From an uncultured Gammaproteobacteria bacterium (GTDB taxonomy: Bacteria; Pseudomonadota; Gammaproteobacteria; SZUA-229), in the NCBI GenBank assembly GCA_963924875.1, contig CAWUSX010000022.1, positions 36,808 to 100,807 of the forward strand: a stretch of 64,000 nt of DNA. The letters run 5' to 3'. The notes below the pieces were generated by a model. That model was not told the origin of the DNA. It saw only the letters and a list, made by a program, of their open reading frames with translations, and did not search any database. Numbering within the stretch: the stretch's first letter is position 1; each line of letters starts with the position of its first letter. This document shows positions 9,347 through 51,255 of the stretch, piece after piece. Both the position numbers and the translations under genes were made by a program.

Positions 9347-9621
9347 CAGGTTTAATATTCTAGAGTGAATATAAATAATAACGCAAATATGGGAGGTATA
9401 TTGCTAGAGGCGAAAGATTAATTTAGCACTGCAAGAAAATTGAGTAAAGACATTTATTTTTTTCATTTAATTTGATGATTTATACTGTTTTTTTCTTGAC
9501 CTAATAATCTATATCTTCTATAAATTAAAATGACACTACATAATAAATGGGAGGTAGTTCTGGCAAAAAGATAAGCAATTTTTTATTTCTATTGTTTAAC
9601 TCATTTTTTTAAAGGTGATAT

Positions 9622-11061: not shown

Positions 11062-11916
11062 ATGCTCCGATTGATCGCATTTATACTTTGTTGTAGCTCG
11101 TCATTTAGCCTGTATGCCGTACAGCGTTATCAATCGACTGTAGATTCCTCTGTGTGGAATGTGAGTAGCAGTCCCATCTTTTGTGAAATGGTGCACCCCA
11201 TTGATAGCTTTGGCAGTGGGCGGTTTACGTATTCTTCGGGAGGCGAGCTGGCCTTTCAGCTTCAGGTGCTGCAGGCGGCCACGCCAATTAATAATGTTGC
11301 GAATCTCTACTCGGTATCTCCTTTTTGGCGTGAACCTCAACAACGAGAGCTTGCTCAGATAGCCATATCCAAAGGTAGAGTGCCTATCTATATAGGTGGT
11401 GATTTAGCTAAACGTATGTTGCATGAGCTAGAGGCGGGGCGGCACCCAACGCTGCACTATAAGGACTTAACGAGTTACGAAGATGACGTTGTTGTTGCCT
11501 TGTCATCGGCAAATTTTCATCAGAAATTTAGTATGTTTCAGCAATGTATCAGTGAGGCTTTGCCCTATGGCATTGATCAACTGAAGGATACGGTCGTCAA
11601 TTTTGCAAAAAATAAATCTAATTTGAATGATGCACAGCTAGAAAAGCTTAAAGATATCGTCCTGTTTGCGAGCATTGATAAAAACATGCAAATTGAAGTG
11701 CATGGTCATACCGACTCACAAGGTCGTCGAATCTATAATAAGAAGTTGTCCCAGCGACGTGCGAGAACCGTTGAAAAGTACCTTTTAGCAAAGGGTGTGT
11801 CTGTAGATCAAATATCACGTCACTTCTATGGGGAGTCAAAGCCTGTAGATTCGAATAAAACTAAAGCAGGTCGCGCCAATAATCGTCGAGTAAATGTTTT
11901 AATCAATTTAGAATAA
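11062..11916 (+). CDS. motY: Flagellar stator-associated protein MotY (MotY N-domain plus OmpA-like C-domain)
   Basis: Signal peptide. N-domain pattern SVWNVSSSPIFCEMVHPIDSFGSGRF and VVVALSSANFHQKFSMFQQCISEALPY resembles Vibrio MotY as I recall it. C-terminal OmpA-like motif HGHTDSQG...LSQRRA...NRRV. It sits next to argG, as in Pseudomonas. Confidence 0.75.
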   Translation: MLRLIAFILCCSSSFSLYAVQRYQSTVDSSVWNVSSSPIFCEMVHPIDSFGSGRFTYSSGGELAFQLQVLQAATPINNVANLYSVSPFWREPQQRELAQIAISKGRVPIYIGGDLAKRMLHELEAGRHPTLHYKDLTSYEDDVVVALSSANFHQKFSMFQQCISEALPYGIDQLKDTVVNFAKNKSNLNDAQLEKLKDIVLFASIDKNMQIEVHGHTDSQGRRIYNKKLSQRRARTVEKYLLAKGVSVDQISRHFYGESKPVDSNKTKAGRANNRRVNVLINLE

Positions 11917-37604: not shown

Positions 37605-38669
37605 ATGTCAGACATTATTCGTGCAGAAATACGTGCCTTAAATGCATACCATGTGGCAGATCCCGGCGAGATGATAAAGCTGGACGCAATGGAAAATCCG
37701 TATCATATGCCGGAGGCCTTAAAGCCTGAGTGGCTTTCGTTAATTGCGCAGGCGGAAATCAATCGTTACCCCGATCCATCAGCACAGGCCTTGTCCAAAG
37801 CGCTTGTGGAATATATGGAGGTGCCTGAAGGTAATTCAATCGTGCTGGGGAATGGTTCTGACGAACTGATTCAAATAATGGCGCTGGCGGTGTCTCAACC
37901 CGGCAGGAAAATCATGGCACCTGAACCGGGCTTTGTGATGTATCGCATGATTGCAAAGTTTGCAGGTATGGAATATTTGGGTGTGCCATTAAAGGAAGAT
38001 TTTTCACTGGATATGCCAGCGATGCTTAAGGCAATCAAAGAACATCAGCCGACGCTTATTTTTTTAGCCTATCCAAATAACCCCACTGGAAATTTATTTG
38101 TAGAAGACGATATCGTGGAAATCATTCAAGCAGCGGATGGTTTAGTTGTTGTGGATGAGGCGTATCACCCGTTTGCGTGTACGAGTTTTATGTCGAGATT
38201 AGGTGAGTTTGAAAACTTGCTGGTGATGCGTACGGTTTCTAAAATGGGTTTAGCGGGTTTGCGTTTAGGCTTGTTGGCGGGCCCGACAAAATGGATCAGT
38301 GAATTTGATAAAGTGCGTTTGCCTTACAATATCAATATCTTAACTCAGGTAACCGCGAAGTTTGCCTTAAAACATAATAATATCTTTGAGGAACAGGCAG
38401 CTTCTATTCGTCAACAACGTGACTGGTTGTTTGATGAATTGCAAAGTTTTACTCAGTTTCAGGTATTTCCAAGTCGCGCAAATTTTATTTTGCTGAGAGT
38501 GCTTGAAGGCGATGCGACATTGATTTTTGAATGTTTAAAAAAGCAGGGCGTACTGATTAAAAATATGCACCCAGCGGGTGGAGTATTAAGTCAGTGCCTG
38601 CGGGTGACGGTGAGTACAGAAGAAGAAAATCAGGCGCTAATTTCTGCGCTGGATGAGTGCGTAAAATAA
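37605..38669 (+). CDS. hisC: Histidinol-phosphate aminotransferase
   Basis: 354 aa with LDAMENPY, NGSDELI, YPNNPTGN and the PLP lysine context RTVSKMGLAGLRLG. Confidence 0.92.
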   Translation: MSDIIRAEIRALNAYHVADPGEMIKLDAMENPYHMPEALKPEWLSLIAQAEINRYPDPSAQALSKALVEYMEVPEGNSIVLGNGSDELIQIMALAVSQPGRKIMAPEPGFVMYRMIAKFAGMEYLGVPLKEDFSLDMPAMLKAIKEHQPTLIFLAYPNNPTGNLFVEDDIVEIIQAADGLVVVDEAYHPFACTSFMSRLGEFENLLVMRTVSKMGLAGLRLGLLAGPTKWISEFDKVRLPYNINILTQVTAKFALKHNNIFEEQAASIRQQRDWLFDELQSFTQFQVFPSRANFILLRVLEGDATLIFECLKKQGVLIKNMHPAGGVLSQCLRVTVSTEEENQALISALDECVK

Positions 38670-38675
38670 ATTCAG

Positions 38676-39749
38676 TTAAGCCTTAGGTCGTTGCCCTAGA
38701 ATTGCCTGGCTTATAAAACTTTGCCGTTCACGAATGCCATTTATTTTTATTTTGTCACCCGGGCGGCCATGTGCAATTACATCGAGTACATCGCGGGTGT
38801 CGCGAATAATATTTTTATCAATACGGGTTAATATATCACCCACTTTTATACCGGCTATATCGGCTGGGCCCTGATCGAATACATCGGTTATTAATACACC
38901 CTGAATATTATTTAAACCAATGTGCTCGAGCATTTGTTCGTTCAGGTCTACGCCTTCAACACCCAGCCATCCGCGGACAACTTCACCGTTGGCTATGATT
39001 TGTTGTACGACATCAAGCACCAAATTAATCGGGATGGCAAAACTAATACCCAGGTAGTTCCCTGTTTGGCTGTAAATAGCAGAGTTAATACCCAGTATTT
39101 CGCCTTTAGGATTAATTAAGGCGCCGCCTGAGTTGCCGGGATTAATTGCGGCATCCGTTTGAATGAAGTTTTCATAGGTATTGAGTCCAACTCTATCTCG
39201 GCCTGTTGCGCTAATAATTCCTTGCGTAACCGTTTGCCCAATACCAAATGGATTTCCAATAGCTAGCACAATATCACCAACGCGTATCTTGTTACTGTTG
39301 GCGATTGGCAATGGAGGAAGTTTGCTTAAGCTAGTTGTTATAACTGCGATGTCTGTGTCTGGATCCAGGCCAAGTATTTTGGCTTCTAATGTTTGTCCGT
39401 TACTAAAGGTGACTTCAATTTTTTTCGCGTTGGCAACGACATGATGATTGGTGACGATGTAGCCCGCTGAACTTATAATGACGCCAGAGCCCTTGTTCGG
39501 ACGAATTTTGAATTCAGGCTGGGATTTTTTTTGAGTCTGTAATGGAAAAGAAGAGTTATTTTGCGGGCTTAAAAAATAAGATTTAATACTCACGACAGAG
39601 GCGGATGCTTTGCTAACGGCGTTTGCATAACTATCAACAGAGGGTTGTTGAGTGTTTGTGCGATCACTTATGAGAATAAGTATTATGCCAAATAATAGGC
39701 CAATGAAAATCCAGTTAATCAGAAATTGTGTAGAATGTGATGATTTCAT
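38676..39749 (-). CDS. DegS/AlgW-type periplasmic serine endoprotease (S1C, single PDZ)
   Basis: 357 aa with an N-terminal anchor, catalytic residues in IVTNHHVV, DIAVI and GNSGGALIN, and one C-terminal PDZ. Confidence 0.85.
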   Translation of the reverse strand: MKSSHSTQFLINWIFIGLLFGIILILISDRTNTQQPSVDSYANAVSKASASVVSIKSYFLSPQNNSSFPLQTQKKSQPEFKIRPNKGSGVIISSAGYIVTNHHVVANAKKIEVTFSNGQTLEAKILGLDPDTDIAVITTSLSKLPPLPIANSNKIRVGDIVLAIGNPFGIGQTVTQGIISATGRDRVGLNTYENFIQTDAAINPGNSGGALINPKGEILGINSAIYSQTGNYLGISFAIPINLVLDVVQQIIANGEVVRGWLGVEGVDLNEQMLEHIGLNNIQGVLITDVFDQGPADIAGIKVGDILTRIDKNIIRDTRDVLDVIAHGRPGDKIKINGIRERQSFISQAILGQRPKA

Positions 39750-39776
39750 GTTTCTTATTATATATGTGGGGCGTCA

Positions 39777-40538
39777 ATGCAACAGCTTAAAGTAATTGTA
39801 GATTACTGTAATGATCTATTGCGAATAAATGATTTTAAAGATTACTGCCCTAATGGTTTACAAATTGAGGGCGGCAGTCAAATAAACAAACTCATATGTG
39901 GTGTGACAGCTTGTCAGGCATTGATAGATTCTGCAATTAAAAAGCAGGCCGACGCAATTTTAGTACATCATGGCTATTTTTGGAAAAATGAAGATCCTGT
40001 TATTAGCGGTATTAAGCGTAAGCGCATCCAGAGTTTATTAGAGAATGGTATTAGTTTGCTGGCATATCATTTGCCCTTAGATGCGCATGAGCAGTTTGGT
40101 AATAATGTCACCCTGGCACAGAAGCTGAATTTGCAAATTGATGGCAATGCGCAACAGGGCCGTGCGAAAGGCCTGTTATGGAATGGTCGGCTTGCCCAGC
40201 AGATGAGCGCCAGCGATTTTGCAAGGCATATTGAGCTCCACCTGGGGCGCGTGCCATTGCACCTTCCCGATGCGGTGAATAAACCCATACAGAAGATTGC
40301 GTGGTGTACAGGGGGCGCTCAGCACTATATTGAAGAGGCGGCAGCAATGGGCATGGATGCGTATATTAGTGGTGAGGTGTCTGAGCAAACGTTTCATTTG
40401 GCACAAGAACTAGATATTCATTATTTTGCCGCAGGTCATCATGCAACAGAGTCTTATGGTGTGCAGGCGTTGGCGTCCCATTTGGGAGACAGGTTTGGTA
40501 TAAATACGGAATTTGTAGATATTGCCAATCCAGTGTGA
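39777..40538 (+). CDS. Nif3 family dinuclear metal centre protein (YbgI-like)
   Basis: 253 aa with NGLQIEG, ILVHHGYFW, LLAYHLPLDAH and AAGHHATE. Confidence 0.85.
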   Translation: MQQLKVIVDYCNDLLRINDFKDYCPNGLQIEGGSQINKLICGVTACQALIDSAIKKQADAILVHHGYFWKNEDPVISGIKRKRIQSLLENGISLLAYHLPLDAHEQFGNNVTLAQKLNLQIDGNAQQGRAKGLLWNGRLAQQMSASDFARHIELHLGRVPLHLPDAVNKPIQKIAWCTGGAQHYIEEAAAMGMDAYISGEVSEQTFHLAQELDIHYFAAGHHATESYGVQALASHLGDRFGINTEFVDIANPV

Positions 40539-40700
40539 TTAATTGACAATATCTAAAATTTTAAGATGTTGATAAGTAACGTAAAACTTAATTAGTCCTT
40601 GGATAAATTGTTGAAATCGCTTAAGATACCGCGTCGTTTTTTCACGTTTGTTACACGGAAAATTCAACACAAAATACCGTTTTCTGGATGAAATTTGCGG

Positions 40701-40721
40701 GTTGATGTGATTAACATCAAA
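40701..40721. repeat. Perfect 8-bp inverted repeat (GTTGATGT-gatta-ACATCAAC) about 60 bp upstream of petA
   Basis: Read directly. The flanks extend the symmetry imperfectly (TTGCGGG / CCTGCAA, 40695-40728). Confidence 0.8.
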
Positions 40722-40780
40722 CCTGCAAATGGATGAGTCAGGCAACATGATTTTAATTTAATAGTTAAAGAGAGGTACGC

Positions 40781-41374
40781 ATGGCTACAGAAGGCGTAGA
40801 TCAAAAAAAACGCCGCTTTCTGACAAACACCACTGTTGTGGTTGGTGCTGTTGGAGCTGGTTTTGTTGCTGTACCCTTCCTGTCTTCCTGGGCTCCTAGT
40901 GAGCGTGCCAAAACTGCAGGCGCGCCTGTAGAAGTGGACATCAGTAAGTTAGAGGAAGGTCGTTTGTTAACAGTTGAATGGCGCGGTAAGCCGGTGTGGA
41001 TTATCAAACGTAGTGATCAGAACCTGAAGGATCTGGTTACGTTAGATGATAATTTACGTGATCCTGCTTCTGAGAATGATCAGCAGCCGGTATATGCTCA
41101 AAATGCAACGCGTTCTATCAAACCTAATATTATCGTTATGGTGGGTATTTGTACGCATCTAGGTTGCTCTCCTACGTATCGTCCTGATTTGGCTGCCGCT
41201 GACTTAGGTGAAGACTGGAAAGGTGGTTTCTTCTGTCCATGTCACGGTTCTAAGTTTGATTTGGCGGGTCGAGTGTATTCGGGTGTTCCGGCACCATTAA
41301 ACTTGGAAGTACCACCACATTTCTATAAGAGCGATCGTACTATTCTGATCGGTGAAGACGGAGGCCAGGCATAA
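40781..41374 (+). CDS. petA: Ubiquinol-cytochrome c reductase Rieske iron-sulfur subunit
   Basis: 197 aa with a Tat-like KKRRFL, and the Rieske boxes CTHLGC and CPCHGS. Confidence 0.93.
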   Translation: MATEGVDQKKRRFLTNTTVVVGAVGAGFVAVPFLSSWAPSERAKTAGAPVEVDISKLEEGRLLTVEWRGKPVWIIKRSDQNLKDLVTLDDNLRDPASENDQQPVYAQNATRSIKPNIIVMVGICTHLGCSPTYRPDLAAADLGEDWKGGFFCPCHGSKFDLAGRVYSGVPAPLNLEVPPHFYKSDRTILIGEDGGQA

Positions 41375-42588
41375 TGTTTAAAAGCTTAATGACTTGGGTC
41401 GATGATCGTTTCCCAGCAACTAAAATGTGGAATGAACATCTGGCTGAATACTATGCACCAAAGAACTTTAACTTCTGGTAGTTATTTGGTTCATTAGCAC
41501 TGCTGGTTCTGGTTATCCAGATTGTCTCTGGCATCTTCCTAACGATGCACTACAACCCGGACGGCGCTATGGCGTTCGCATCTGTAGAGTACATCATGCG
41601 TGATGTGCCTTACGGCTGGTTGATTCGTTACATCCACTCTACGGGTGCAACGGCCTTCTTCGTGGTGGTTTATCTGCACATGTTCCGTGGCTTAATGTAC
41701 GGTTCATTCAAGAAGCCTCGTGAATTAGTGTGGCTATTCGGTATGTTCATCTACCTGGCATTAATGGCAGAAGCCTTTATGGGTTACCTGTTGCCATGGG
41801 GTCAGATGTCTTACTGGGGTGCGCAGGTTATCATTTCATTGTTTGGTGCTTTGCCGATTATTGGTGATCCGCTAACACTTTGGATTCGTGGTGATTATGT
41901 TGTCTCTGGTGCTACGCTTAACCGTTTCTTTGCGCTACATGTAGTTGCATTGCCGCTGGTTATTTTAGGCCTGGTTGTTGCTCACATCATTGCATTGCAT
42001 GAAGTGGGTTCTAATAACCCTGAAGGCGTTGAAATCAAAAAGCACAAAGATGAAAATGGTATTCCTCTAGACGGTATTCCATTCCACCCTTACTACTCTG
42101 TTAAAGATATCGTAGGTGTGGTTGTGTTCCTGATCTTCTTTAGCCTGGTACTTTTCTTTGCACCAGAAGGCGGCGGTTACTTGCTTGAGCATGCGAACTT
42201 CGTACCATCTGATCCATTGAAGACGCCTCCGCACATAGCGCCTGTTTGGTACTTCACACCGTTCTACGCTATTTTGCGTGCGGTTCCAGATAAGCTCATG
42301 GGTGTTATGGCTATGGGCGGTGCAATCGTTGTGTTGTTCTTACTGCCCTGGATCGACCAGTGTAAAGTTAAGTCGATTCGCTACCGCGGAATGAGTTTCA
42401 AAATTCTATTAGCTGCGTTCTCTGTGTCTTTCGTTGTGCTGGGCTGGTTAGGTATGCAGCCTGCTACACCTGAATTAACATTGCTGGCACGTATCTTTAG
42501 TGTGGTTTACTTTGGCTTCTTTATAGCCCTGTACTTTACATCTAAAAACGAAGCAACGAAGCCTGTACCAGAGAGGATTACCAAATGA
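41374..42588 (+). pseudogene. petB: Cytochrome b (bc1 complex) interrupted by an in-frame TAG at codon 36 (41479-41481)
   Basis: The ATG at 41374 overlaps the petA stop. MFKSLMTWVDDRFPATKMWNEHLAEYYAPKNFNFW, then stop, then LFGSLALLVLVIQIVSGIFLTMHYNPD continues in the same frame into ORF 41545-42588. The stop replaces the Tyr of the conserved W-Y-F-F-G. Confidence 0.85.
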
Positions 42589-43355
42589 TGAATTATTTTG
42601 GGAAGAAAATTTTAACTGTAATTCTGGTAACTTTTTCAGGTCTAGTAATGGCTGCTGGCGGTGGTTTTCCGCTGGATAAGGCGCCTGTCGATCTGCATGA
42701 CAAAGAGTCACTAAAGCGTGGTGCGGTTGCTTTTGCAAACAATTGCTTAAGTTGCCATGCTGCAAGCTATATGCGTTACAACCGTATTGGTGCTGATCTG
42801 GGTATGACGGATATTGAAGTGAGTGAACAGCTAATTTCAACCCGTGATGCTGCTGGCGAGAAAACTAAGCCGGGCCAGTTAATGAAGATCGCGATGAATA
42901 ACGATTACTCAAAAATTGCGTTTGGACTTAAAATTCCAGACCTATCAGTAATCGCTCGTGCTCGTGGCGCTGACTGGTTGTACACCTACCTACGTACTTT
43001 TCACATAGATGATTCACGCCCAACAGGCATGAATAACATGGTATTTGCTGACGTTGGCATGCCGCATGTACTATGGGATAAGCAGGGCTTGCAAAAAGCG
43101 GTTTACACTACAGAAATGGGTGAAGACGGTAATGAGCATCATAAATTCGAGAAAATGGAAATGGTTCAAGCCGGCTCTATGAGTACAGAAGAATATGATG
43201 CTTTCGTTGGTGACCTGGTTAACTACCTGGTTTATATGGCTGAGCCTATACAGGTTGAGCGTAGGAGTCTTGGGGTTAAGGTTGTTATCTTCCTTGTGTT
43301 CTTTGCAGTGATTGCTTATCTGTTAAAGAAAGAATACTGGAAAGACATTCACTAA
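42585..43355 (+). CDS. petC: Cytochrome c1
   Basis: 256 aa with a signal peptide, heme site CLSCH and a C-terminal TM anchor. Its start overlaps the petB stop (ATGA). Confidence 0.88.
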   Translation: MMNYFGKKILTVILVTFSGLVMAAGGGFPLDKAPVDLHDKESLKRGAVAFANNCLSCHAASYMRYNRIGADLGMTDIEVSEQLISTRDAAGEKTKPGQLMKIAMNNDYSKIAFGLKIPDLSVIARARGADWLYTYLRTFHIDDSRPTGMNNMVFADVGMPHVLWDKQGLQKAVYTTEMGEDGNEHHKFEKMEMVQAGSMSTEEYDAFVGDLVNYLVYMAEPIQVERRSLGVKVVIFLVFFAVIAYLLKKEYWKDIH

Positions 43356-43473
43356 AAGTCTCTAGCTTGAAGTCCGTCAGACCGGGTTCTGTAAACGCCT
43401 ATATGGGTTTCCAGTATCTGGCTGACGGTTTTTAACTTACGGGCATAAGATATATTATTGAGGCAAACTAATT

Positions 43474-44106
43474 ATGGCGTCTAATACACTCGCCAATCGC
43501 AGATCGGTGATGAATTTATTCACATCACCAACCTGTCCATATTCTCATCTTGCACGTATTGTGCTCGCTGAGAAAGATATAACTTTTGAATCAATTGACG
43601 TTAATGTTGATTCTCCACCTGAAGATTTATCCGAGCTTAATCCATATAACACAGTACCGACATTAATTGATCGTGACCTGGTGCTGTATGATTCGCGCGT
43701 TATTATTGAATATTTAGATGAGCGTTTCCCTCATCCACCACTCATGCCGGTTGATCCAGTGTCGCGTGCAAAAACGCGTTTAGCGTTACATCGCGTTGAA
43801 AAAGACTGGTATCCGCTGATGCATGACATTATGAATAAGGGTGAAAAAACAGTTGCGAAATCACGTAAAATTTTGCGTGAAAGCATTGTTTCTTCTAATG
43901 AACTATTTCAAGTCATGCCATTTTTCTTAAGTGAAGATTACACATTAGTTGACGCAACTATTGCTCCTTTGTTGTGGCGTTTACCTGTACTGGGTATTGA
44001 ATTGCCTGCAGAAGCAAAAGCGGTTGCAGATTACGCGGAACGTATTTTTAGTCGTGAAGCTTTTCAGTTAAGTCTGACAGAAGCAGAAACGGAAATGCGT
44101 CTTTAA
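43474..44106 (+). CDS. sspA: Stringent starvation protein A
   Basis: 210 aa GST-like protein with LFTSPTCPYSH, VPTLIDRDLVLYDSRVIIEYLDERFPHPPLMP. Confidence 0.92.
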   Translation: MASNTLANRRSVMNLFTSPTCPYSHLARIVLAEKDITFESIDVNVDSPPEDLSELNPYNTVPTLIDRDLVLYDSRVIIEYLDERFPHPPLMPVDPVSRAKTRLALHRVEKDWYPLMHDIMNKGEKTVAKSRKILRESIVSSNELFQVMPFFLSEDYTLVDATIAPLLWRLPVLGIELPAEAKAVADYAERIFSREAFQLSLTEAETEMRL

Positions 44107-44133
44107 TCCATTGTGGTTAAAGAGTAATTGCTT

Positions 44134-44532
44134 ATGACATCCAGTCGTCCATATTTAATTAGAGCGTTGTATCAATGGATTATAGATAATGGCGTTACGC
44201 CATACATTCTTGTTGATGCGCTTGTGGATGGTGTGGATGTTCCTGCACAGCATATTCAGGACAATAAAATTGTTTTAAATATTGCACCGATGGCCGTTCA
44301 GGGTCTTAATTTAGGTGATGATGAAATTAATTTTAGTGCCCGTTTTAGCGGTCAGTCAGTTACTTTGCGGGTGCCCACTCACGCTGTGCTGGCTATTTAT
44401 GCCCGTGAAAATGGACAGGGTATGATGTTTAATGATGAGCCTGACTCGCCGGGTCCGAATGATGGGTCATCGGATTCAACTGAGGCGGATAATAGTAGCA
44501 AACCTAAACCGTCACTAAGAGTTGTAAAGTAG
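44134..44532 (+). CDS. sspB: Stringent starvation protein B (ClpXP adaptor)
   Basis: RPYLIRALYQWIIDNGVTPYILV and a C-terminal LRVVK tail (ClpX-binding type). Confidence 0.88.
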   Translation: MTSSRPYLIRALYQWIIDNGVTPYILVDALVDGVDVPAQHIQDNKIVLNIAPMAVQGLNLGDDEINFSARFSGQSVTLRVPTHAVLAIYARENGQGMMFNDEPDSPGPNDGSSDSTEADNSSKPKPSLRVVK

Positions 44533-44544
44533 TAGCAGAAAAAA

Positions 44545-45924
44545 TTAGGAGATAGGTAAGGTTTTTTCTGGGTTTAGAATGCCATTCTTGTCAAATACCT
44601 GTTTAATTTCTCGCATTAAATTTATTTCAGTTTGCCCTAGTTCCTTATAAATATAATCGCGTTTTTCCAGGCCTACACCATGCTCTCCAGATAATGTGCC
44701 GTTCAGGCGGAGCACCAGATCAAAGACATCATTTAAACAATTCTCTGCTGCATGTAATTCTTTTTTATCGTCAGGATTAACTAATAAATTAACGTGGATA
44801 TTGCCATTTCCCGCATGACCAAAGTTAACTATTTTTATATTATATTTTTCACTAAGTTTATCTAAGCCATTAATTAAATCAGGCATGTTAGATACCGGGA
44901 CCACAACATCTTCATTTATTTTTTTCGGTGCAATTTTTCTTAAGCAAGGTGATAAGGCCTTACGTGTTTGCCAAAGAGCGGTGGCTTCTTCTTTGCTGGC
45001 AGCAATTTGCGTACTGATGTGTCCGTCTACCTTGCAGGCATTAACCACAGCATCGGTGTCTCTTTGAATCGTATCGGCATGCCCGTCAACCTCAATCATT
45101 AACATCGCGCCTGCCTCTTTGGGAAGATCTGCAGATGAATAGTCACGCACCATATCCAGTGCATTTTTATCCATAAATTCCAGCGCACAGGGTGTAACGG
45201 CTTGCGCCATAATATTTGCAACTGCGCGGGCAGCGGCGTCAATACTGATATAGCTGGCTTTTAAAGTATGTTTTGTTTCAGGTTTGGGTAACAGTTTAAG
45301 TGTGGCCTGTGTGATTAACGCAAGGTTACCTTCAGAGCCAATTAATAAACGGGTTAAGTCATAGCCAACAACGCCTTTAGTTGTGTGTACGCCACATTTA
45401 ATGATTTCACCATTACCAGTGACCGCACGAAGACCTAAGGTGTTCTCTCTGCATGTCCCGTATTTAACCGCACGAGGTCCGGCTGAGTTATAGGCCAGAT
45501 TGCCTCCTACACTGCAAAATGCGGCGCTAGTAGGGTCCGGGGCCCAGAAAAATCCGTGTTCTGCAGCGCATTCCTGTACCTGTAAATTTGTCACGCCGGG
45601 TTGCACGTCAATACTGCGATTCTGTGCATCCATTTTTATGATTTGATTCATGCGCTCAAAAGAAATTACAAGTTCATTATGAATAGGTACGGTGGCACCG
45701 GTTGTGCCAGTGCCACGGCCGCGAGCGATTAAGGGGATTTTGTGTTGATTACAAGCAAGAACGATTGCCTGTACCTGTTGCTCGTTGCGGGGAAAAATAA
45801 CCGCAAGGGGCTGTGCCTGCCTTCGACTATTGTCATAACCATAGGTGAGGCACTCGGTGCTGTCGGTTAGTAGGTCGTCAGCGCTCACGAGTTTTTTAAG
45901 TTGCTTAATGAAGGCGTTGCTCAT
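44545..45924 (-). CDS. FAD-linked oxidase (GlcD / D-lactate dehydrogenase-like)
   Basis: 459 aa with an FAD-binding PCMH pattern (IARGRGTGTTGATVP) and C-terminal SGEHGVGLEKR. Confidence 0.8.
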   Translation of the reverse strand: MSNAFIKQLKKLVSADDLLTDSTECLTYGYDNSRRQAQPLAVIFPRNEQQVQAIVLACNQHKIPLIARGRGTGTTGATVPIHNELVISFERMNQIIKMDAQNRSIDVQPGVTNLQVQECAAEHGFFWAPDPTSAAFCSVGGNLAYNSAGPRAVKYGTCRENTLGLRAVTGNGEIIKCGVHTTKGVVGYDLTRLLIGSEGNLALITQATLKLLPKPETKHTLKASYISIDAAARAVANIMAQAVTPCALEFMDKNALDMVRDYSSADLPKEAGAMLMIEVDGHADTIQRDTDAVVNACKVDGHISTQIAASKEEATALWQTRKALSPCLRKIAPKKINEDVVVPVSNMPDLINGLDKLSEKYNIKIVNFGHAGNGNIHVNLLVNPDDKKELHAAENCLNDVFDLVLRLNGTLSGEHGVGLEKRDYIYKELGQTEINLMREIKQVFDKNGILNPEKTLPIS

Positions 45925-45954
45925 GTGATTACTTTACCGTAAGAACGATATGTT

Positions 45955-46542
45955 CTATGCGCCTAATAATTGTGAATCGACTAAATCACCCAGACAATGA
46001 ATGATCACCAGATGAGTTTCCTGTATGCGGATGGGGCAGTCGGCGTCAACCCGAACTTCAATGTCGTCATGATTTAAGCGGGAGCTAACTTCGCCACCAC
46101 TTTGCCCCGTGAGTGCAATGACTTTCATATTTCGTTCATGGGCTGTCTCAATGGCGCTGACAAGGTTGCCGGAGTTGCCGCTGGTAGTAATGAGAAATAA
46201 TAGATCTTCAGGTTGTCCAAGTGCGGCAATTTGTCGAGAAAAAATTTGATCATAACTATAATCATTGGCAATAGAGGTTAGCGTAGAGGTGTCCGTTGAA
46301 AGTGCAATAGCAGGTAAACCAGGGCGTTCCTTATGAAAACGGTTGAGCATTTTTGAAGAAAACAATTGCGCCTCACCGGCGGAGCCGCCATTGCCGCAGG
46401 AAAGAATTTTTCCACCTGAAAGCAGGCTCTGTGTCATTAACTGTGCTGCAAGTGCAATGTCATTTTGCGCTTTATCTAATGTGCGTTGTTTGGTTTTGAT
46501 GCTTTCTGAAAAGTTATTTTGAATTATTTCGATTAGATTCAT
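45955..46542 (-). CDS. diaA: SIS-domain DnaA initiator-associating protein DiaA (phosphoheptose-isomerase fold)
   Basis: 195 aa with [37 protein letters not shown] and TSGNSGN. It aligns along its length with E. coli DiaA as I recall it and shows the same yraN-lpoA synteny. Confidence 0.85.
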
Positions 46543-50783: not shown

Positions 50784-51255
50784 ATGAATATTGAAAAAGT
50801 GACGTATAAAGATTACAGCCTATGTGATCCTAACTTTATGCAGGGTATTGATCTTCTTGTTGAAGGCCTTATTGCTCAAGCTGCGCATTGTTTTTGAGCT
50901 TGCTTATGAGCAAGTTACATATAAAAATCTGCATTATAATAAATATGCATCATTTTGTGGTTATACCCGAGTGTTAAATGGGGGTGACCGTGGTGGCTTG
51001 TCATTGTGTCGGGAGGTGGCTCGTCGTGAACTATATGATGGTGATGTGTTTTTTAATTTATCTAAGGCGGAATGGTTTTTTAAGGCGCGAAAGCAGACCA
51101 TTAGTGCATTAAGAGAAGGCTTGAGGGTTGACTTTATGCACCCTGGCTTGCGAGAATTACGCAATGCTTTAGGCGTCAGAAAAAAAGCGCCGATTATGTT
51201 TTTACCAAGAAAACATGTGCTTAATAATGGATTGGGAAAATTACTTAGAAAATAG
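50784..51255 (+). pseudogene. Unrecognised family, paralogue B, split by a +1 frameshift in a T5 run (50891-50895)
   Basis: ATG at 50784 (SD AAGAGGA) gives MNIEKVTYKDYSLCDPNFMQGIDLLVEGLIAQAAHCF, then TGA. Dropping one T joins it to ELAYEQVTYKNLHYNKYASFCG... of ORF 50824-51255, restoring about 156 aa colinear with paralogues A and C. Confidence 0.6.

Follow-up and report, generated by a model that had tools for sequence, protein, structure and literature searches.

The window, the whole 64,000-nt stretch of a draft gammaproteobacterial genome that was analysed, contains the petA-petB-petC operon of a cytochrome bc1 complex. The gene for the Rieske iron-sulfur subunit lies 5' of petB, the gene for cytochrome c1 lies 3' of it, and the three genes are joined by overlapping stop and start codons, with the petA TAA overlapping the petB ATG at 41374 within ATAATG. 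The features of the region are listed below by window position, together with the corresponding sequence in the Logan contigs of sequencing run ERR12120024.

40781..41374, + strand: petA, Rieske iron-sulfur subunit, 197 aa (TIGR01416, 2e-70; PF10399, PF00355)
41374..41478, + strand: petB codons 1-35, conserved N-terminus (by translation; identical to Logan contig L093)
41479..41481, + strand: in-frame TAG, petB codon 36 (TAC in the Logan contig; TAC or TAT in relatives)
41482..41484, + strand: TTA (Leu), petB codon 37 (TTC (Phe) in the Logan contig and all relatives; a second, linked private change)
41485..42588, + strand: remaining petB, codons 38-404 and stop, undecayed (PF00033, PF13631, PF00032)
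41545..41547, + strand: Met58, first in-frame start 3' of the TAG (first ATG, GTG or TTG after the stop)
42585..43355, + strand: petC, cytochrome c1, 256 aa (PF02167, 4e-20; start overlaps the petB stop)
43474..44532, + strand: sspA and sspB, 3' of the operon (GST_N/GST_C; PF04386 SspB)

The sequence at 41470-41490 reads AAC TTC TGG TAG TTA TTT GGT; counted in frame from the ATG at 41374, the TAG at 41479-41481 is codon 36. The 35 codons 5' of the TAG and the 368 codons 3' of it make up one colinear cytochrome b. An uninterrupted frame of about 400 codons is absent from the deposited petB, which is broken by the TAG at codon 36, and inspection of the sequence finds no lesion in the gene besides codons 36-37.

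The identity of the gene is established by several types of match. Its part 3' of the TAG matches PF00033 (7e-63), PF13631 and PF00032 (1e-41) in Pfam. Among solved structures, PDB 8smr chain I (403 aa) gives the best match (E 2e-178), in an alignment that begins at chain residue 37, and matches extend to the Rhodobacter bc1 structures 2qjy and 1zrt. The pairs His88/His102 and His189/His204 are kept in conserved contexts, their role as haem ligands being assigned by sequence pattern only. The Qo-site motif at residues 290-293 (window 42241-42252) is PVWY and not PEWY, a variant typically seen in the cytochrome b of beta- and gammaproteobacteria. In its 404 codons, its PF00033 and PF00032 domains, its place in the operon, its four histidines and its PVWY motif, the gene is a proteobacterial cytochrome b (petB/fbcB), from which the deposited sequence differs only by the TAG at codon 36 and by Leu for the invariant Phe37, both of them private.

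Comparison with relatives indicates how strongly this site is constrained. In the genomes of 30 relatives petB is open, about 410 aa long and free of internal stops, and one further relative gives no match. Aligned congeners read TGG TAC/TAT TTC TTT GGT at the site. A set of 134 petB homologues, composed of 120 among the matches listed by a protein search (81-98% identity) and 14 from a cluster look-up, has W-Y-F-F-G in every member, with lengths of 385-404 aa and none truncated. The deposited sequence departs from every relative at two adjacent codons, where Tyr36 becomes a stop and Phe37 becomes Leu. The dN/dS of petB is 0.03-0.06 against six congeners, with dS near saturation, and the 35 codons 5' of the TAG have 7-12 synonymous and 0-1 non-synonymous differences from five same-genus relatives. 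Judged by these substitution patterns, petB is free of signs of decay, and the 35 codons 5' of the stop are as constrained as the rest. A genuine decaying pseudogene is rejected on this dN/dS, on the lack of any other petB lesion and on the absence of the lesion from the Logan contig and the 30 relatives.

The Logan contigs provide the closest comparison. When the petA and petC products are looked up by exact match, two carriers only turn up across the whole collection, the window's own contig and the Logan contigs of ERR12120024. These contigs are about 99.9% identical to the deposited assembly over 33 kb, where the run may be either the deposit's own source run or a sibling sample. Contigs L093 and L094 tile window positions 37781-46355 with four differences. 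Two of these are the petB changes, G in the deposit for C in Logan at 41481 and A for C at 41484, so that the Logan sequence reads TAC-TTC (Tyr-Phe). The other two are synonymous G/A differences, one of which, at 41715, is the only further difference in petB. The N-terminal petB fragment in L093 is open over its 239 codons, and the petB frame is free of stops across the Logan contigs that tile the gene. The normal codons are thus present in a population that matches the deposit at about 99.95% identity. A 39-mer around the petB site, with N at both variable bases, has no matches in the JGI metagenome collection, and exact look-ups of the products of mraZ, rsmI, thiD, pyrG and a 211-aa gor-like neighbour find no match on record. 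The Logan assembly also breaks within petB (42067-42090), where L093 and L094 overlap by 24 nt only, which suggests low coverage or a graph branch at that point.

An earlier note on this DNA had described a bc1 cytochrome b with an in-frame TAG at codon 36, placed on a conserved Tyr codon, without a frameshift and between intact and coupled petA and petC genes. All of this agrees with the present results: the Pfam and 8smr chain I matches identify the gene, the TAG is seen in the deposited sequence between colinear codons, the site is Tyr in every homologue and TAC in the Logan contig, the stop/start overlaps are present, and the petA and petC proteins are identical in L093 and L094, respectively. 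The note had also explained the stop by one TAT or TAC to TAG substitution. The change from TAC to TAG is borne out, but it is accompanied by a second change 3 nt further on, from TTC to TTA, which replaces Phe37 with Leu.

The respiratory chain of the organism bears on whether a broken petB could be tolerated. The recovered genome encodes a cbb3 oxidase (ccoN scores 664 bits, where the cut-off is 583, and is adjoined by ccoO, ccoP, ccoG and ccoI), along with a NorB-like enzyme and one haem-copper oxidase of divergent sequence. At C49:36163-37617, a divergent homologue of haem-copper oxidase subunit I scores 149 bits with PF00115 and has no NCBIfam equivalog above cut-off; it may be of a quinol- or NO-related type, and it adjoins SCO1-like genes and a gene for an Rrf2/NsrR-like regulator. 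No cytochrome bd was found in the recovered 69% of the genome. A tblastn search finds no second petB in the assembly, and the idea that this gene is a redundant pseudogene copy, which the earlier note had tied to another petB elsewhere, is rejected. Because the terminal enzymes are cytochrome-c-dependent and neither cytochrome bd nor a second petB is seen, the bc1 complex should be needed. The suggestion that its loss would be tolerable if alternative quinol oxidases carried respiration is therefore not upheld in the recovered 69%, where only the cytochrome-c-dependent cbb3 and NorB-like enzymes occur. From what is established about respiratory chains, a true petB null would be costly and a simultaneous hemL null costlier, and respiration is expected to depend on at least hemL and petB.

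The stop in petB is not the only one of its kind in the deposited genome, which comprises 2.04 Mb in 93 contigs, is 68.8% complete and has 13 tRNA genes found. In a census of in-frame stops, sites were retained where the sequence has coding potential both before and after the stop and no restart codon lies close by, and the read-through products were tested for Pfam domains spanning the stop. Simply tallying neighbouring open frames that share a reading frame, by type of stop, gave no information, as adjacent genes swamp the count. Besides petB, four genes are interrupted in frame within a conserved domain: hemL and, added by the census, zapE, a gor-like reductase gene and an AcrB-like fragment. 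They are listed by contig position.

C3:11220-11222, - strand (locus L095): hemL, TAA at codon 313 of a frame intact elsewhere (AAA in Logan contig L096; at a TTT/AAA boundary)
C6:9534-9536 (locus L134): zapE/AFG1, TAA at codon 51 (AAA to TAA relative to Logan)
C59:307-309 (locus L122): gor/lpd-like oxidoreductase, 460 aa, TAG in Pyr_redox_2 (...DYGFD*ENKGFDW...)
C66:2948-3553, - strand (locus L125): AcrB/ACR_tran fragment, 202 residues, profile positions 650-788 of 1021, internal TAG

Both hemL (429 aa, contig L096) and zapE (369 aa, contig L134) are intact in the Logan assembly, as is petB, and the deposited assembly thus carries several lesions unfiltered by selection that the other assembly lacks. 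The hemL stop is accompanied in the deposit by a synonymous GGT to GGC difference 4 nt away. Around zapE the deposit has a missense change (ACT to TCT) 24 nt upstream of the stop, has lost one base from an intergenic T7 run, and carries a TTTAAA to TTTTAA change (Phe to Leu) in a neighbouring molybdopterin enzyme gene. These zapE-region differences, at C6:9273, 9510, 9534-9536 and 12400, are all missing from the Logan contig. The short open frames surrounding the AcrB-like fragment suggest that it has further lesions or is a real pseudogene. In the window itself, the middle one of the TPR-like paralogues has a T5 run followed by TGA at 50884-50897 (CAT TGT TTT TGA), as a one-base homopolymer frameshift at 50891-50897 would give. 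Five genes with internal stops per 2 Mb are, taken alone, not beyond the range of real genomes.

The spectrum of the differences is more informative. Over the 33,079 nt compared, the deposited and Logan assemblies have 25 differences, which are distributed as follows.

Synonymous substitutions: 17 (16 transitions, 1 transversion)
Intergenic substitution: 1 (transition)
Replacement or nonsense changes: 6 (all transversions)
Indel: 1 (single-base deletion in a T7 run)

Replacement changes are associated with transversions (6 of 6, against a silent class in which 17 of 18 are transitions; Fisher p = 5e-5). They are also clustered, lying 3 nt apart in petB and 24 nt apart in zapE, with the reservation that rates of clustering are biased by ascertainment, three of the lesion regions having been picked for containing stops. 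Three of the four A to T changes turn TTTAAA into TTTTAA, a context that accounts for 3% of A/T sites. The silent differences resemble the usual polymorphism between strains that are under strong purifying selection. The class of replacements and the indel, which is unfiltered by selection and dependent on context, looks like systematic consensus or amplification error and not like a natural spectrum. Natural-looking paired changes also occur between the two assemblies, as in the MotY-like gene at window 11658/11661, where an adjacent pair of synonymous third positions reads ATC GTC in the deposit and ATT GTG in Logan.

Taken together, these results are best accounted for if the TAG is a defect of the deposited sequence, most likely a sequencing or consensus error, an explanation to which we assign a probability of about three in four. 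It is probably an error because a near-identical assembly reads Tyr at the site and the same draft has one-off breaks in other essential genes. Under this explanation petB would be an ordinary, functional bc1 cytochrome b gene, and the TAG and TTA would be a private two-base defect of the draft. The defect may stem, for instance, from a thinly covered stretch in which a single erroneous read set the consensus, or from an amplification or base-calling error. The petB lesion would then belong to a set of clustered, transversion-type differences, unfiltered by selection and scattered over the assembly, that also break hemL, zapE and other genes. We infer a technical origin for the replacement class as a whole, as opposed to a set of real private mutations.

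This pattern resembles the internal stops called through consensus error in draft metagenome-assembled or single-cell genomes and in long-read assemblies. In those cases too, essential single-copy genes that are otherwise perfectly conserved are interrupted at single sites, an incomplete assembly carries several such lesions that an independent assembly of the population lacks, and homopolymer-associated indels are found along with substitutions at run boundaries. The petB change differs in that it does not lie at a homopolymer boundary; its C to G and C to A changes are without the TTT/AAA signature of the other lesions, which counts against error. Also to be weighed against it are that the TAG may be fully supported by the deposit's own reads, and that genuine silent polymorphisms separate the two assemblies, which therefore stand for slightly different strains or choices of consensus and leave room for a real private allele.

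Such an allele would be a very recent, private multi-nucleotide event of two bases in the sampled cell or sub-population, leaving petB as a fresh null allele on which selection has not yet acted. It could take the form of damage-induced or slippage-type mutations in a single amplified cell, or of a minor haplotype taken up by the assembler. This explanation is the chief competitor of a sequence error and is nonetheless unlikely. It is favoured by the 18 silent substitutions in 33 kb, which make the deposited and Logan sequences genuinely different haplotypes, by the natural-looking pair at 11658/11661 and by the undecayed state of petB, as expected of a very recent event. In addition, the mutant bases turn TAACT-TCTGGT-ACTTC (window 41462-41484) into a perfect 5-bp inverted repeat, TAACT...AGTTA, which resembles the product of quasi-palindrome template switching and has a chance of about 0.03 for a random double substitution. 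A template-switch origin was nevertheless rejected as a general account, since it fits petB (p about 0.03) but fails for the hemL and motY pairs. An ectopic copy or chimera was rejected as well: the mutant 15-mer TGGTAGTTATTTGGT recurs at C72:27509 on the - strand, where its flanks are unrelated. Although only about 0.004-0.01 chance matches of this 15-mer are expected in the genome, its recurrence is probably a coincidence.

A recent mutation would further need simultaneous fresh nulls in hemL, zapE, the gor-like gene and petB, in a genome that shows neither a second petB nor any alternative quinol oxidase. The restriction of replacement changes to transversions and the repeated TTT/AAA signature fit a systematic technical error better, and the one other public assembly of the population lacks the allele. 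If the stops are genuine, the sequenced cell or lineage may have undergone a burst of clustered transversions, with A to T changes at boundaries of T and A runs and a double change in petB that corrects a quasi-palindrome, produced by an unusual mutational process, for instance dislocation or template-switch mutagenesis, and knocking out bc1, hemL and zapE while other members of the natural population stayed intact. We regard such a burst as improbable.

A third explanation, that the TAG is read as sense by a suppressor tRNA(CUA), a reassigned code or programmed read-through to give full-length cytochrome b, is very improbable. The deposited petB shares with known systems of amber suppression and reassignment (supE/supF-type tRNAs, pyrrolysine, TAG-recoded bacteria and phages) an in-frame TAG at a conserved sense position, here exactly at a Tyr codon one base from TAG in an otherwise perfect frame, and two of the other domain-internal stops are also TAG. 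It differs from them in several respects. Release factor RF1 is kept, its gene prfA being open and scoring 555 bits against a cut-off of 423, and TAG is a normal terminator that ends 192 of 979 open reading frames of at least 250 aa (19.6%). ARAGORN finds no tRNA-CUA among the 13 tRNAs of a genome that is 69% complete, where absence is not proof; the suppressor could sit in the missing 31%. The lesions are not specific to TAG, as hemL and zapE are broken likewise by TAA. The near-identical strain and all relatives use TAC or TAT, the base at +4 is T, and suppression would not mend the change of the invariant Phe37 to Leu.

Still weaker is a truncated or split cytochrome b, consisting of a 35-aa N-terminal peptide and a product restarted at Met58, which is very unlikely: the in-frame ATG at 41545 is followed by 347 intact codons, but no Shine-Dalgarno-like motif lies upstream of it (...GGCATCTTCCTAACG ATG), residues 37-57 with nearly the whole first transmembrane helix would be missing from both pieces, none of the 134 homologues has this architecture, and an exact look-up of the 347-aa product returns no other record. 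As the earlier note had supposed, the restart would cost the gene its first transmembrane helix, helix A, whose position is predicted from the hydrophobic stretch at residues 33-56.

Among the three causes that the earlier note had offered for the stop, a base-call error is thus favoured and a recent mutation is allowed, whereas the intact RF1, the common use of TAG as a stop, the lack of a tRNA-CUA among the recovered tRNA genes and the TAA lesions elsewhere argue against amber suppression. The petB TAG offers no evidence that this organism suppresses amber codons or has altered its genetic code. If the stop is real, it would be merely a short-lived null allele of the bc1 complex. With a sequence error as the preferred explanation, the finding serves as a quality flag for this draft genome, in which signals of a 'pseudogene', an 'unusual start codon' or 'recoding' are to be taken as probable consensus errors until the reads are checked.
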